A stretch of 64,000 nucleotides of DNA from an uncultured Verrucomicrobiae bacterium (GTDB taxonomy: Bacteria; Verrucomicrobiota; Verrucomicrobiia; Limisphaerales; UBA11358), in contig CAWBKH010000001.1 of the NCBI GenBank assembly GCA_963789335.1, forward strand, positions 307,304 through 371,303. Reading direction: 5' to 3'. The notes under the pieces were generated by a model, which was given only the letters and a program-made list of their open reading frames with translations, had not been told where the DNA came from and made no database searches. Positions 482 through 64,000 of the stretch are shown piece after piece (within the stretch, counting starts at the first letter, position 1; each line of letters opens with the position of its first letter). Made by a program: the position numbers and the translations under genes.

Positions 482-2866
482 CTACTGTCTTAAGAGCCGA
501 TAAAACTCCGTCGCTCCGCTGATGGCGTTGGTGTAGGGCGGAGTCGCGCCATTTACACTCGAGTAAGGCCCGCTGACACTGGTTGAATCCTGGAGTGTGC
601 CAGTGCCCGCCGGCCAATTGAGAATCACATCGCTGCCCGACTGGACAATCGTGAGGCTTACCTCATTCAAGTAATGCGTCTGAACCTGCTGCGGCGTGAG
701 GGCATAGTTGTAAACCGCTGTATCCTGCATTTTGCCGTCGAACGCGCCGAATTGATTGTCGGTGCGTTGTCCCAGCACAAAATTGCCAAGAACTCCGGGG
801 TCAATCCCGGCGGTGCCATCCTGGTTGATGCCATCGCCATTGGGGATGAAGTTGACGCTGGCAACCGGGACTGGAGCCACGGCCAACACGCCATTGATGT
901 AGAAGTTGAAGTTCGTGCCGTCATCGGTGACGACCAGATGATACCAATCGCCCGCGGTGATGGAGCCGGCCACGATGAACGCATTCGCCGGCTGTGGCAC
1001 AAATGCAAACGTGTGGCTCGGTTGCTGGTAAAGATACCAGCCGTTGTAGGGATTGGGATAGAGATTGTACTGAGATGAAAGCACCACACTATATTGCCCA
1101 TTGGTAGTGTTCCACAAGGAGGGCTGAACCCAGGTTTCGACCGACCACGAAATGTCGGGATTGAGCTCGGGCGCCCACGGGATTTGCACGGTTGCCCCTG
1201 GCGAACTTTGTGGCGTGCTTACGTTCGAAAAGTCCACAGCGGTATTTGTGTCATGTGGAATACCGCCGATTAATCCGCCCGTGAGGTTGCCGCCGTTGTT
1301 GGTCACATAGGTGCCATTAAAGCTGCCCACCGCGTCCACCGCTGTGCTGCCGTTGATTGGGTTTGGCTCATTCAATTGCCAAAGAGCCACCGGTTTGTCA
1401 GCTGCGACGAGGGCAGCGTAACCCGTGAGCGAAACGCTGACAGGTCTGGGCTGGACAGTCAAAATAGCCGGAGATGTCGTTGAAGATTGGACCGGACCGG
1501 TAACCAGCACTTCATACTGATAGCCGTTTTCAGCCATTTGGACATTGGACAGCCATAACGTTTCATTGGTTGCGCCCGCAATTGGTGTAAAAGTGCTTCC
1601 TCCGTTAATGCTTTGAGACCATTGATAGGTGATCGGCGTTGCGCCGCTAGCCGTGACATGGAAGGCAGCGTAGCTCCCGACGTCGCGTGTGATGGATAGG
1701 GGCTCGCCATTGATGAACAGCGCACCGGCAACCGTCAGGGTCGCCACCTGGCTCGTCGAAACACCGGCGCTGTTGGTGACCACCACGAAGTAAGTCGAGT
1801 TGTTTTCCCCGCCGCTCGCGGTAAAGCTCAAGTAACTGTTGGTGGCATTCGCATCGGCAACGTTGTTTGTGTACCACAAATACGAAAGCGGCGTGCTTCC
1901 AATCGCGATGGGATCAAACGCCGCCGTGTTGCCGGCATTGACCGAAATGGAAGCCGGATTGGAATTGGTCGCGCCGAGGTCCACCAAAACACTCGCAGGC
2001 TCCGGATTGGTCGAGAAGGCATTGGTTCCTACTTCATAGTGTGTCAAAACCTGGGTCGCGCTGAGCGCATTGGTGTAAATGGCCACTTCGGAAAGATAAC
2101 CCTCAAAGTTGCCCCAGCCTGTGGGCGGGTCGCCATCAATATACAGATCAGGTGGACTCGCTGTGTTGGCTGAATTGTTGGCCAGATAGCCAGCGGCGGA
2201 GACAGTCGCGGTTGCCACGCCATTGATGTAAAAAATGAAGTTGGTTCCATCATAGACGCCTACCAAGTGCGTCCACTGGTTCTTGACCACCTGGCTGGTC
2301 TGGATGAAGGCCCCTCCGGCGGATCCCAAGCTGGGGTTGAACACCCAGCTTCCGGGCGATCCCGCCGAGCCGGGCGTCTGATAGAAATCCCAGCCGGGCT
2401 GGGCATATGCACCGCCGCTGCCCAACGGAACAGTATAATCGTTGCCCCCGCCAGTGTTGTCGCTGGTCGCGCGCGCCCAGAATTCCACCGAGAATGGGCC
2501 TTGGGGATTCAGCACATCGCTATGTCCCACGTCCACGTACGAAGAATGGCTCTGAAAATTGATGTCGCCATAGTTGTGGAACAGATAGGCGTTGGTGTCC
2601 ACGCCGGGCACACCCAGCACCGGATAGTCTGGATTGCTGTTGATATCGAGATCATAAGCGATCCCGCCGTTAAATCCGTTTCCAGTAGAATCGACCGCAG
2701 TGCTTGCACCCGGCGATTCGTTCAGCTCCCAGAAGGCGGCCGGATGATCCGCCATGATGGTGGAGTGATAATCCGCGCTGGCCGTGCGCGTGCCCAGTAA
2801 TACGAATGCCGCCGCCAATGGCAGCGTTGCGAGCCTCCAAGTGACCGACTTTATTGTTGATTTCAT
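482..2866 (-). CDS. Secreted protein: LamG-like jellyroll, 2x Ig-like, LamG-like jellyroll, C-terminal FYRL-type domain
   Basis: Signal peptide; LamG motifs ([42 protein letters not shown]); Ig repeats (PLSYLW, PITYQW); ends EFYRLLRQ. Confidence 0.85.
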
Positions 2867-3001
2867 ATATCTTTTAGGTTGTTTGTTTGCATGAACTCCC
2901 GGTCCGTTTTGCTGTCCAGATTAAAACCAAGCGTTTATATTGCCCGTTTTATCTCTGTCATTCATGCGCCTACTATAGAATGTTTTCCCCGGCTTCGTCC
3001 A

Positions 3002-3019
3002 TCCCCCTGTTTAGGGGGA
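3002..3019. promoter_or_regulatory. Palindromic operator candidate TCCCCCTGTTTAGGGGGA
   Basis: CCCCC-N6-GGGGG inverted repeat about 140 bp upstream of the LamG gene; a second copy lies at 5250. Confidence 0.5.
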
Positions 3020-3089
3020 AATTGGACAATGCGATCAGGTTTGCACCGCATTGGGGACTCACGAAAGCAGCGAGTGAGAAACGTTCCGA

Positions 3090-61693: not shown

Positions 61694-61723
61694 AAATGCC
61701 CCCCGGTCGCTCTCTCTTCACGG

Positions 61724-62869
61724 TCAGCGCACCATACTGTCGCGAAATTGCTTCGGGGACATTCCGGTTGCCTGCTTGAACGCCACGCAAAACGTGTTGG
61801 CGCTTTGATAACCGCACAGGCCGGCAAGCACTTCCAGTTTATGGGTGGATTCCGCCAACAGACGCTTGGCCCGTTCGATCCGCATCCGTTGCAGCTCCTG
61901 TCCGGGAGTCCGCCCCACGTTTTCCAGAAAAGCCTTGTGCAATCCCCGCCGTGACATTGCGGCCACGCCCACCAAATCCTTGACGGTTATCGGCTCGGCG
62001 GCGTGTTCCCAAATAAATCGCAGGCTGTTGGCCACGCCCTTGTGGTTGATGGCCAGCAGATCGCTGCTCTTGCGCGTCACTATGCCATTCGCGGGAACCC
62101 GGATGGGCTTCTTCGGCGGAGCCTTGCCGTTCATCAAATCCTGGAGCAAGGAGGCGCCCGTATAACCCAAGGTCTGCAAGTTGGTGTCCACACTGGAAAT
62201 GGGCGTGTGCATCGTATCCGGGGCCAGAAGATAGTTTTCCGCCCCGATGATCGCCACCTGTTCGGGCACTGTCAGGCCCGCGCTCTCACACGATTCCAGC
62301 ACGTCGAGCGCCTGTTCGTCGTTGGCGGCAAAAACCGCCAAGGGTCTGGGCTTGGATTTCAACTGCGCAAGCAGCCATTTCCGCTTGTACCGCCACTGTT
62401 CCCGATCATTGCGGTAAGCCGGAGACCGATGCCACCGCAACCAGGTGCATTCATGCCCGGACCGTTTCAACGCCTCGACGAAACCATGGCCGCGTTCTTC
62501 ATACGTCCAGTTGTCGGTGTCGCTGTAGTACAAAAAATTGTGAAAACCGCGGGACAGAAAATGCTCGGCCACCAGTTGCGCGGCATGTTCATGATCCTCC
62601 AGCACCCGGGGAAATCGCAACTGAGGACGGCGGAAACTGAAATCCACCGTGGGTTTTTTGGCGCTGACGACAAATTCCGCCAGGTCATCTCCGGCTCCCA
62701 GCCAGGCCAGAATCCCGTGACCCTCCCAGCCCCAGGGAATCACCTTCTCCCGGGTCAAATTGGCCGAGAGATGCCAGTTGTGTTCCTGGGCGAATTTCTC
62801 TATCCCGCGATGCAACCGGTAGTCGTACCAACCCAGCGCGATTAAAACCCGCTTTTGTTTGTTTTGCAT
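61724..62869 (-). CDS. XylR-type regulator (LacI-like sugar-binding domain plus AraC HTH)
   Basis: AVFAAND, VPEQVAIIG, ISSVD; C-terminal RIERAKRLL...CGYQSANTFCVAFKQATGMSPKQFR. Confidence 0.88.
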   Translation of the reverse strand: MQNKQKRVLIALGWYDYRLHRGIEKFAQEHNWHLSANLTREKVIPWGWEGHGILAWLGAGDDLAEFVVSAKKPTVDFSFRRPQLRFPRVLEDHEHAAQLVAEHFLSRGFHNFLYYSDTDNWTYEERGHGFVEALKRSGHECTWLRWHRSPAYRNDREQWRYKRKWLLAQLKSKPRPLAVFAANDEQALDVLESCESAGLTVPEQVAIIGAENYLLAPDTMHTPISSVDTNLQTLGYTGASLLQDLMNGKAPPKKPIRVPANGIVTRKSSDLLAINHKGVANSLRFIWEHAAEPITVKDLVGVAAMSRRGLHKAFLENVGRTPGQELQRMRIERAKRLLAESTHKLEVLAGLCGYQSANTFCVAFKQATGMSPKQFRDSMVR

Positions 62870-63230
62870 AATTGGAAACTGACCCGGATAAGCGTCCTTT
62901 TCAATTGATTTTTACGGAGGGGTTCCGGCTAAGATCTTTCCATTTAAGGCTCTGAAAGAGCGAGGTTCTTGTTTTATTGGCTGAAAATTATTTGAGAAAT
63001 GGGAATTTCCACCAAAAAAGCACCGTGAAAAAACAAGCCAACGGCCAAACAGGTGCTCATTTTTCAAACATCTTTGCAACAATACGAGGCTGACACAACG
63101 GATTATTTCAGGTAATGTTTTTCAAACCATCAATGATAAGCGAAGCCGTAGCCGGACGATTGGCGTCGCGCGGCTATGGGCCGGAGACGATAAAATGAAA
63201 GTATTAATCCCAAAACCCTCTGGAAATACT

Positions 63231-64000
63231 ATGAAACAGATCCATTTAATCCTCGTAATTCTTCTTGGCGTCATTCTCGGCCAAAGTGCCAATGCCACCA
63301 CGGTTGTTACCGAACAGTTTCAAGACTATCTCGACGGGCAACTCGGCACTGTCGGAACAGGTAATACCGGCATCATCCCCGGCAATTGGCTTACTGCCTC
63401 AAGCGTTGGTGTCGTCGTCACCAATGGCAGCGGCAGTCTGGATGGAACAGCGCTGGGTTTGGTGGCGTCCGCCGGCGACAAGGCTGAAATATTAGTCTCT
63501 ACCAATTACGACCTCAACTCAGGTAATCCTAATGGTTGCTACATGGTATTCGCCAACAAGAATACGCCTTGGCCGGCCTTTCCGGGAACCAACGCCGTCA
63601 ATCTTTATTGTTCGTTCCTGTACCAGTTCAACGCCGCGACTAATTTCTGGACCAATGGGATTTCCCAGGTTGCCGTCATGCACCGTCAGAACAGCGGCGT
63701 TTACAGCACCCCCAGCGCGAGTTACTGGCGATTGTTCGCGATGTCAAATAGCGTGGAGTACGTCCAATTGGGAATTTGCAAAAATCCCTACGGCACCGAC
63801 CCAGGCCCTACAAATTGGGACAATACCTTGGTTAAGGTGGGAGAACCCTTTTTCGTAGTCGTTCGGCTGGAGATTGCCGCGACCAACGCCGCGTCGGAAT
63901 ATACCAACGATGAAGTTGATATGTGGATCAACCCGGCTCCGCAGTACTTCGGCACCAACGAAGCTAATGTGCCGACGCCCGACGTGACTTTGGCTGCGGG
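63231..64000 (+). CDS. Secreted protein of unknown function; runs off the window edge
   Basis: Not in the ORF track. MKQIHLILVILLGVILGQSANA signal peptide; frame stays open to the end (...FFVVVRLEI...VDMWINP...). Alternative ATG at 63195. Confidence 0.8.
   Translation, partial: MKQIHLILVILLGVILGQSANATTVVTEQFQDYLDGQLGTVGTGNTGIIPGNWLTASSVGVVVTNGSGSLDGTALGLVASAGDKAEILVSTNYDLNSGNPNGCYMVFANKNTPWPAFPGTNAVNLYCSFLYQFNAATNFWTNGISQVAVMHRQNSGVYSTPSASYWRLFAMSNSVEYVQLGICKNPYGTDPGPTNWDNTLVKVGEPFFVVVRLEIAATNAASEYTNDEVDMWINPAPQYFGTNEANVPTPDVTLAA

Follow-up and report, generated by a model that had tools for sequence, protein, structure and literature searches.

Exported proteins encoded in a 64,000-nucleotide stretch of DNA from an uncultured Verrucomicrobiae bacterium (positions 307304–371303 of contig C1 in the source genome, G000, an assembly of 4.35 Mb, 56% G+C and 13 contigs; the whole stretch is referred to as the window) contain the dipeptide Thr-Asn (TN) far more often than its reverse, Asn-Thr (NT). 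This raises the question of whether two adjacent residues can constitute a selected signal and, if so, what in the cell reads it. The initial annotation of the locus had suggested a glycosylation sequon, favoured in exported proteins with a FYRL-type C-terminal tail and avoided in those with a PEP-CTERM sorting signal. The hand counts behind that proposal, 73 TN versus 15 NT in five exported proteins, were reproduced one by one upon translation of the open reading frames (ORFs), as were the counts for two PEP-CTERM ORFs (32343–33146 and 43405–44316; no TN, with one and three NT, respectively). The peptides quoted from homologous sites were found in the proteins named, and the cytoplasmic enzymes of the window carry 0–1 TN each, as had been reported.

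When the comparison is extended to the whole genome and to related bacteria, TN emerges as a selected, protein-level signal linked to export, a claim that withstood the attempts made to refute it. The frequency of TN depends on cellular compartment and on lineage, and its enrichment in most exported proteins is coupled to a purge from others. The best reading of these statistics is that an activity in the cell envelope reads Thr-Asn, and less strongly Ser-Asn (SN), hence [T>S]-N, in G000 and many of its relatives.

Enrichment of Thr-Asn outside the cytoplasm

The 3416 genes of G000 were obtained with a simple codon-score caller made for the analysis, and their products were divided by simple rules into FYRL-tailed proteins, PEP-CTERM proteins, proteins with a signal peptide only, membrane proteins and the rest, with signal peptides, tails and helices likewise assigned by rule. 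The reversed pair, NT, served as the composition control for TN, and expected numbers were calculated from the Thr and Asn composition of each individual protein. On this basis the asymmetry seen in the window persists genome-wide, with 5653 TN versus 2784 NT, a larger imbalance than in any other of the 190 dipeptide pairs. The 119 FYRL-tailed proteins contain 1449 TN where 642.5 are expected (2.26-fold; NT 461), making TN the most enriched dipeptide of the class, and 200 within-protein shuffles of the same proteins gave 644 ± 22.5 TN, with a maximum of 716. Part of this excess resides in the tail itself, which has a conserved TN (270 versus 92.7 expected in the last 100 residues of the class), and once these 100 residues are removed TN still stands at 1149 versus 534.2.

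It had been proposed that the excess is special to the FYRL class, and this part of the claim did not hold. The 572 proteins with a signal peptide only contain 1852 TN versus 996.4 expected (1.86-fold), and the 101 proteins with a lipobox contain 199 versus 120.5 (1.65-fold); autotransporters and the periplasmic loops of inner-membrane proteins are enriched as well. Across exported proteins with a combined TN and NT count of at least three, TN exceeds NT in 312, is exceeded by it in 51 and equals it in 27. The compartment dependence is visible within single proteins: when 163 polytopic membrane proteins are oriented according to the positive-inside rule, TN numbers 124 versus 80.2 expected in their periplasmic loops (1.55-fold) and 65 versus 62.7 in their cytoplasmic ones (1.04-fold). 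Likewise, the 1510 cytoplasmic-type proteins with at least 22% charged residues are exactly neutral (737 versus 736). An apparent 1.22-fold excess in the whole cytoplasmic class is due to 112 low-charge members, which are probably exported proteins with an overlooked signal peptide. In exported proteins TN is enriched 1.7–2.2-fold across all charge bins; the 16 barrel-like proteins that end in an aromatic residue are neutral (42 versus 36.8). The TN effect is thus tied to compartment, and not to composition.

The signal acts at the level of amino acids. The nucleotide pattern ACNAAY occurs 5653 times in frame in G000, versus 3096 and 1145 times in the other two frames, and the excess is shared among the ACA, ACC and ACG codons in combination with both AAC and AAT. 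It is also strictly adjacent, as Thr and Asn separated by one to three residues occur at 0.92–1.03 times expectation in exported proteins. Thr is not enriched before Asp, Gly or Ser (0.86–0.91 and 0.73), and N-x-T and N-x-S lie at 1.10–1.14-fold and 0.89–1.00-fold, respectively, in the exported classes, so that a PglB-type sequon is not apparent. The flanking residues, assessed for the Asn of TN relative to the remaining Asn of the same exported proteins, are biased too. In G000, Pro is disfavoured at position N+1 (0.52-fold), and at N+2 Arg and Lys are scarce (0.19- and 0.34-fold) and Pro, Phe and Val are favoured (1.76-, 1.49- and 1.45-fold). A similar pattern recurs at 1361 sites in TN-rich relatives (N+1 Pro 0.47 and Asp/Glu 0.46; N+2 Lys/Arg 0.46 and hydrophobic residues 1.40), and is absent from 148 TN of neutral relatives (N+1 Pro 1.26; N+2 Asp/Glu 1.90 and hydrophobic residues 0.72). 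Charged residues are generally scarce near TN. Together, these data define a fuller motif, T-N-x-hydrophobic, with Pro, Asp and Glu disfavoured at N+1 and Lys and Arg at N+2; Ser-Asn seems to be a weak form of it. Neighbouring sites repel one another, with TNTN never seen and spacings of three to five residues making up 2.7% of the total versus 5.9% expected.

How such sites evolve can be followed in the family of a double-LamG protein of the window (41421–43301). Its 84 homologues, which share 34–100% identity and include the window's own two copies, contain 1115 TN and 410 NT, with 432 TN expected; source names among homologues, such as Pedosphaera sp. and Verrucomicrobiae bacterium, agree with a placement of G000 in the Verrucomicrobiota. 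The 73 aligned full-length members carry a mean of 13.7 TN each, distributed over 124 columns. Four columns, among them an invariant V-V-T-N-A in the tail, reach a conservation of at least 50% and account for 21% of TN, and 42% fall in columns conserved below 20%; NT attains 50% conservation in no column. Of the two partners, Asn is conserved better at 396 sites and Thr at 129, with the two similar at 477, and on this alignment Asn appears to be more often the older of the pair. The number of TN is thereby maintained while the individual sites turn over, which is the pattern expected from a short functional motif. An AlphaFold model of this double-LamG protein (71-row alignment; predicted local distance difference test score, pLDDT, 87.4) places six of the 14 TN sites in loops, five at the C-terminal ends of strands and three in helices, such that no single structural niche explains them.

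Export classes that avoid Thr-Asn

The PEP-CTERM proteins of G000 show the converse behaviour. The 31 proteins recognised by a strict pattern contain three TN where 38.6 are expected (0.08-fold), and the 41 recognised by a looser pattern contain seven versus 51.3 (0.14-fold). TN is the most depleted dipeptide of this class, with NT at 34 and SN at 17 versus 42.4 expected, and 200 within-protein shuffles of the strict set gave 38.4 ± 5.9 TN with a minimum of 25. These proteins form 26 BLAST clusters, nearly all without TN, and the missing TN is therefore not one inherited accident. In 46 alignments of a PEP-CTERM protein with a paralogue bearing another tail, TN numbers two versus 91 and NT 47 versus 35, and pairs at 52–55% identity still differ by zero versus four and zero versus five TN. 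The window itself contains such a pair: the PEP-CTERM protein at 43405–44316 and its FYRL-tailed LamG paralogue are 34.9% identical over 304 columns, with zero and seven aligned TN, respectively. Avoidance in the exosortase class, as asserted by the initial annotation, thus holds for G000, and elsewhere the claim requires qualification, as PEP-CTERM proteins of relatives, with TN at 0.57–0.68 times expectation, are merely not enriched. At the rate of the congeners, the probability of finding three or fewer TN in the G000 set is 6e-7; the class is exempt from enrichment in relatives and purged in G000.

The cleanest TN-avoided class lies beyond the earlier proposal, and was found by a scan for TN-poor exported proteins in G000. 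A two-partner secretion locus at C13:34638–42087 encodes a TpsA exoprotein of 1622 residues (C13:34638–39506) and an adjoining TpsB, with a TPS domain in TpsA (PF05860, 75.4 bits) and, in its neighbour, a POTRA domain and an ShlB/Omp85 barrel (PF08479, 87 bits; PF03865, 46.4 bits). This TpsA contains no TN where 12.7 are expected, and six NT. The TpsA of a genome from another family of the order (G100) is likewise devoid of TN (0 versus 37.0; NT 21), with SN reduced to three versus 24.0. Among the best 120 homologues of TpsA, at 41–100% identity, there are 32 TN versus 1427 expected, with none at all in 95 of the 120, and SN falls to 282 versus 1771, TN and SN being the two most depleted dipeptides. 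In three neutral genomes of the phylum, TN in TpsA is ordinary (12 versus 14.9, 10 versus 18.3 and 12 versus 11.8). As TpsA is purged in TN-rich lineages and ordinary in neutral ones, enrichment and purge are two faces of one lineage-specific trait. No TpsA was found when it was looked for in ten TN-rich genomes of other classes, and so the coupling is demonstrated within the class to which G000 belongs. Exported proteins whose route avoids the periplasm were looked for as well, and neither flagellin nor rod protein was found in five genomes, and no RTX repeat in G000. At C2:14706–21106 of G000, a 394-residue ORF with an autotransporter beta-domain directly follows a TN-rich ORF of 1757 residues on the same strand, and a frameshift or a sequencing error may have divided a single autotransporter gene into the two.

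Lineage distribution, window genes and candidate enzymes

The FYRL tail is a C-terminal domain of about 85 residues with the consensus Y.vq.sTNL..W ... D ... RFYR. In the FYRL proteins of the window it matched no Pfam or NCBIfam family, the models for type IX secretion system sorting domains included. Searched with a profile of 23 such tails (alignment A1), G000 gives 89 matches; the domain is likewise present in 40 of the 41 genomes of the order and in 28 of the 61 sampled from the phylum, TN-neutral genomes among them. This profile served to locate large tail-bearing genes, and 44 other genomes were typed from 6–200 kb each, taken either around such loci or as random DNA of 100–200 kb; these genomes are related to one another, and are hence not independent. 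A congener is TN-rich (169 versus 106.6 expected), as are all 20 tail-sampled families of the order (1.3–2.9-fold, with TN/NT of 2–5.5), and outside its own class the trait recurs in ten genomes of six families (1.44–3.04-fold). Two genomes (G093 and G078) that were neutral on one locus each proved TN-rich after resampling (75 versus 57.5 expected, NT 32; 95 versus 57.1, NT 39), as single large proteins can be TN-neutral within TN-rich genomes.

Ten genomes are neutral in total (0.59–1.17-fold), and three more are ambiguous. The neutral set comprises all six genomes sampled from other orders of the same class (0.64–1.17-fold), a further three (G006, G008 and G035; 0.59–0.74-fold) and, within the order, G084 of family f35 (127 versus 140.8), which brings the order to 20 TN-rich of 21 other families. 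G084, with 42% G+C versus 53–66% in the other sampled families, three tail-domain matches and one PEP-CTERM match, may represent a lineage that lost the trait. As the neutral genomes share the tail domain and also encode large, beta-rich exported proteins, the fold is not the cause of the excess. The suggestion that turn propensity in homologous folds might account for TN was thereby put to the test, and neither the ten neutral genomes of the same phylum nor E. coli K-12, sampled over 50 kb (45 genes; 26 versus 33.8), has an excess.

A search for enzymes that might read the motif points, tentatively, to GT-C proteins resembling TMEM260 (PF11028), which are present in 32 of 32 TN-rich genomes and four of ten neutral ones; the genomes being kin, this association is a lead and not a proof. 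PMT_2 (PF13231), a GT-C family used as control, occurs in 23 of 32 and seven of ten, and was rejected as a trait-linked enzyme on account of this lack of association. The TMEM260-like family is thus the one considered further. In G000 the family has three members, of which two carry TPR repeats. One, of 1298 residues and with C-terminal TPR repeats, is encoded on the minus strand at C1:388212–392108 (74.8 bits; cut-off 24.2), 17 kb beyond the end of the window, and is flanked by three FYRL-tailed genes; the other two are at C7:73494–75845 and C2:1229592–1232528. Strong matches are also found in large ORFs of every other sampled family of the order, with the match in G084 being weak and split. 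Human TMEM260 is described as an O-mannosyltransferase that acts on a Thr set by a degenerate linear sequon in beta-sandwich IPT domains and that has distant bacterial homologues, with mannose transfer established for the human enzyme only (PMC10214176; bioRxiv 10.64898/2026.09.21.753134). By family membership and distribution, the bacterial proteins are the leading candidates for the reader of TN, albeit weak ones. Within the window, the minus-strand gene at 21411–24170 encodes a multi-pass membrane protein of 919 residues whose only match is a weak, sub-threshold one (20.6 bits) to the C-terminus of YfhO, and may, judging from its sequence, encode another lipid-linked-sugar transferase.

The first of the window's exported proteins, on the minus strand at 482–2866, has LamG and Ig-like domains (Laminin_G_3 and I-set) and a FYRL-type C-terminal domain, with 15 TN and five NT; the remaining genes described here lie on the plus strand. 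A sugar porter of the major facilitator superfamily (MFS; 6241–8028) has three TN (residues 377, 391 and 450), all in a loop of 125 residues after the ninth predicted helix, in agreement with the claim that its TN is extracytoplasmic, a location predicted from the usual MFS topology. The loop itself is unusual, being an insertion that separates predicted helices 9 and 10. The adjacent GH20 hexosaminidase (8040–9713) has a signal peptide and no FYRL tail, yet carries six TN versus one NT, so the excess is not bound to the tag. Further downstream are a PEP-CTERM protein (32343–33146; no TN, one NT; TIGR02595, 16.7 bits against a cut-off of 16) and a GH2 glycosidase with a LamG domain and a FYRL-type tail (33134–37147; TN 19, NT 2).

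Next comes a LamG gene interrupted by an insertion sequence (IS). Its N-terminal piece (38233–38799; TN 3, NT 0) encodes a signal peptide and is 35.5% identical to the N-terminus of the 43405 protein; the IS contributes a DDE transposase (38796–39767; DDE_Tnp_1, DUF772), and the C-terminal piece (39835–41367; TN 10, NT 1) retains the FYRL tail. As both pieces keep their TN excess, the insertion looks recent. The double-LamG protein at 41421–43301 has a FYRL tail, 14 TN and three NT, and its PEP-CTERM paralogue at 43405–44316 has no TN and three NT (PF07589, 22.3 bits, cut-off 20.7; TIGR02595, 20.4 bits, cut-off 16). Both PEP-CTERM proteins end in a PEP motif, a hydrophobic helix and a basic cluster, the elements of the PEP-CTERM sorting signal. 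A PL7 alginate lyase with Ig and glycine-rich domains and a FYRL tail (44554–46599) has 12 TN and four NT, and the start of a 780-residue exported protein that runs past the end of the window (63195–64000) contributes nine TN and four NT inside it. In a DNA search for the locus in five congeners no synteny was detected, the GH2 gene being the sole orthologue found.

Possible readers of the motif and their significance

According to the proposed mechanism, TN would be read, in G000 and a large part of the Verrucomicrobiota, by an activity located at the outer face of the cytoplasmic membrane. Reading would benefit most exported proteins, allowing TN to accumulate at shifting positions, and would harm TpsA exoproteins and, in G000, PEP-CTERM proteins, from which TN would be purged. 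The activity would most likely be a covalent modification of Thr or Asn in the periplasm, and the modification could be glycosylation by a lipid-linked-sugar transferase of the GT-C type, which would make TN a new bacterial sequon. A glycosylation-like sequon is suggested by the shortness of the motif, its operation only outside the cytoplasm, the preference for Thr over Ser, the disfavour of Pro after Asn, the spacing of sites, their turnover and the route-specific harm. An enzyme as the reader, a glycan as the mark and the identity of that enzyme are what we infer from these patterns. Periplasmic covalent modification of TN, with glycosylation as the favoured form, is given about an even chance. 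The narrower proposal, in which T-N(-x-hydrophobic) is the sequon of a new Verrucomicrobiota glycosylation system that extends over the entire order of G000 and several lineages beyond it and is run by TMEM260-like enzymes, with a mark that two-partner secretion and, in certain lineages, exosortase sorting would not tolerate, so that the proteome would have become divided into TN-rich and TN-free export classes, is tentative, and appears possible rather than probable.

Several observations weigh against a covalent mark. The evidence for a modification is wholly statistical, and the gene calls and class rules on which it depends, for signal peptides, tails and topology, are crude. STT3/PglB-type enzymes (PF02516) gave no match in G000, G100, G060 or G035, and a weak, sub-threshold one of 21.4 bits in G026. 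The TMEM260-like family scores strongly in two neutral genomes (G005 and G008), and the neutral genomes that lack it cluster in three families (f4, f5 and f10), so that its link with the trait rests on few independent events. Autotransporters are TN-rich (21 versus 11.0 and 26 versus 17.5 expected; 14 versus 8.6 in G100), as is the 859-residue TpsB partner of G000 (11 versus 3.6). A rule by which chains that cross the outer membrane unfolded must be free of TN was consequently rejected, and the richness of autotransporters indicates that the harm to TpsA is not simply that of unfolded passage across this membrane. PEP-CTERM proteins are not purged in relatives, whether in seven congeners (25 proteins; TN 20 versus 35.0, SN 15 versus 35.9) or in 27 other genomes of the order (28 proteins; TN 21 versus 31.1, SN 31 versus 31.2). 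Furthermore, the modelled LamG sites are dispersed over loops, strand ends and helices, and in 70 mostly cytoplasmic orthologue pairs between G000 and the congener G071, 24 of 49 TN sites are conserved, which puts TN at rank 220 of 233 dipeptides and gives it no advantage over the others. As only six of these 70 pairs are exported, weak conservation in this comparison says little.

TN might instead be read non-covalently, by a periplasmic chaperone, by a factor for sorting or secretion, or by a quality-control protease to which it is visible only in unfolded chains. Reading would then favour proteins whose folding takes place in the periplasm, and those required to remain unfolded or tethered, such as TpsA and the PEP-CTERM class, would have to escape capture or cleavage. 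Such a reader fits the same compartment, lineage and flank data, accommodates the purge from a TpsA that crosses the periplasm unfolded, and requires no glycosyltransferase. It sits less comfortably with the enrichment of periplasmic loops in inner-membrane proteins, which have no need of sorting, and with autotransporter passengers, which cross unfolded yet are TN-rich; in addition, a polar motif of two residues is unusually short for chaperone binding, and no candidate factor has emerged, no search aimed at one having been made. On balance a non-covalent reader is considered rather unlikely.

Two further accounts dispense with a reader altogether. In one, a polar beta-branched residue before a turn-forming Asn would aid solubility, folding or protease resistance, and it can point to LamG columns in which TN often alternates with V-N, I-N, S-N and P-N and Asn is the better conserved partner, to the five of 14 model sites that end a strand, and to the scarcity of charged residues nearby. 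Such physico-chemical adaptation is quite improbable: the same folds show no excess in ten neutral genomes of the phylum, Thr is not enriched before Asp, Gly or Ser, sites occupy loops, strands and helices alike, and a preference of this kind cannot explain 32 TN versus 1427 in TpsA, nor the normal TpsA of neutral lineages, by which it is strongly disfavoured. The remaining possibility, that TN is a by-product of mutation bias, codon-pair bias, paralogue expansion or gene-calling artefacts, draws on small marks of codon context (ACC-AAY somewhat preferred, ACT-AAY avoided), on the conserved TN of the FYRL tail and on the many paralogues among exported proteins. The excess involves three Thr codons and both Asn codons, in frame only; TN differs by compartment within single proteins and persists once the tail is removed; a single family distributes it over 124 different columns; and 26 PEP-CTERM clusters nearly all lack it. 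For practical purposes a by-product is refuted by the codon, LamG-column, loop and neutral-TpsA data, and is scarcely credible.

A covalent mark on TN, the favoured reading, can be compared with established systems. The general O-glycosylation of the Bacteroidota acts at D-(S/T)-(A/I/L/V/M/T), and resembles the present case in its short motif, comprising a hydroxy residue and a following hydrophobic position, in its many membrane-crossed substrates of any fold, and in belonging to a phylum that also has a C-terminal sorting domain. Here the motif is T-N-x-hydrophobic with no preceding Asp, in another phylum, and its roughly twofold over-representation is combined with a purge from one secretion class, a combination of which we know no report for the Bacteroidota. 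In N-glycosylation, PglB of Campylobacter modifies D/E-x-N-x-S/T and the eukaryotic sequon is N-{P}-S/T. Shared features are an Asn with a hydroxy residue, a preference for Thr over Ser, the disfavour of Pro after Asn (here 0.26–0.52-fold) and, for the bacterial enzyme, periplasmic action; in TN, however, Thr directly precedes Asn, and no STT3 was found in G000. With TMEM260 O-mannosylation the candidate system would share a GT-C enzyme, a C-terminal repeat module, a Thr in a linear sequon and beta-sandwich domains, whereas the human sequon, Px6Px3Px2GGx3T, is domain-specific and the present motif has two residues and is independent of fold.

The avoided proteins are, by their signature domains, ordinary members of the PEP-CTERM/exosortase and TpsA/TpsB systems, and to our knowledge dipeptide avoidance has not been reported in either family. 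A literature search, with most subscription journals outside its scope, returned no Thr-Asn motif, no dipeptide bias in Verrucomicrobia, no motif avoidance in PEP-CTERM proteins or TpsA, and no glycosylation of PEP-CTERM proteins at a motif resembling Thr-Asn. TN differs from the nearest known systems, the Bacteroidota O-glycosylation motif and PglB N-glycosylation, in motif, in phylum and in its pattern of enrichment with purge.

Whatever the mechanism, a proteome in which one dipeptide is enriched 2.3-fold in some proteins and depleted 50-fold in others bears an unusually clear trace of selection on a short linear motif in bacteria, and TN provides a sequence-only marker for which exported proteins take which route. 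As a sequon, TN would point to a general system of protein modification in a large group of polysaccharide-degrading bacteria, most of them uncultured. If TMEM260-like proteins were in addition the enzymes, the bacterial relatives of this human O-mannosyltransferase, which is linked to disease, would gain their first function. A TN sequon would also supply a rule for expressing the glycoside hydrolases and lyases of these organisms, the stability of which may depend on the mark.

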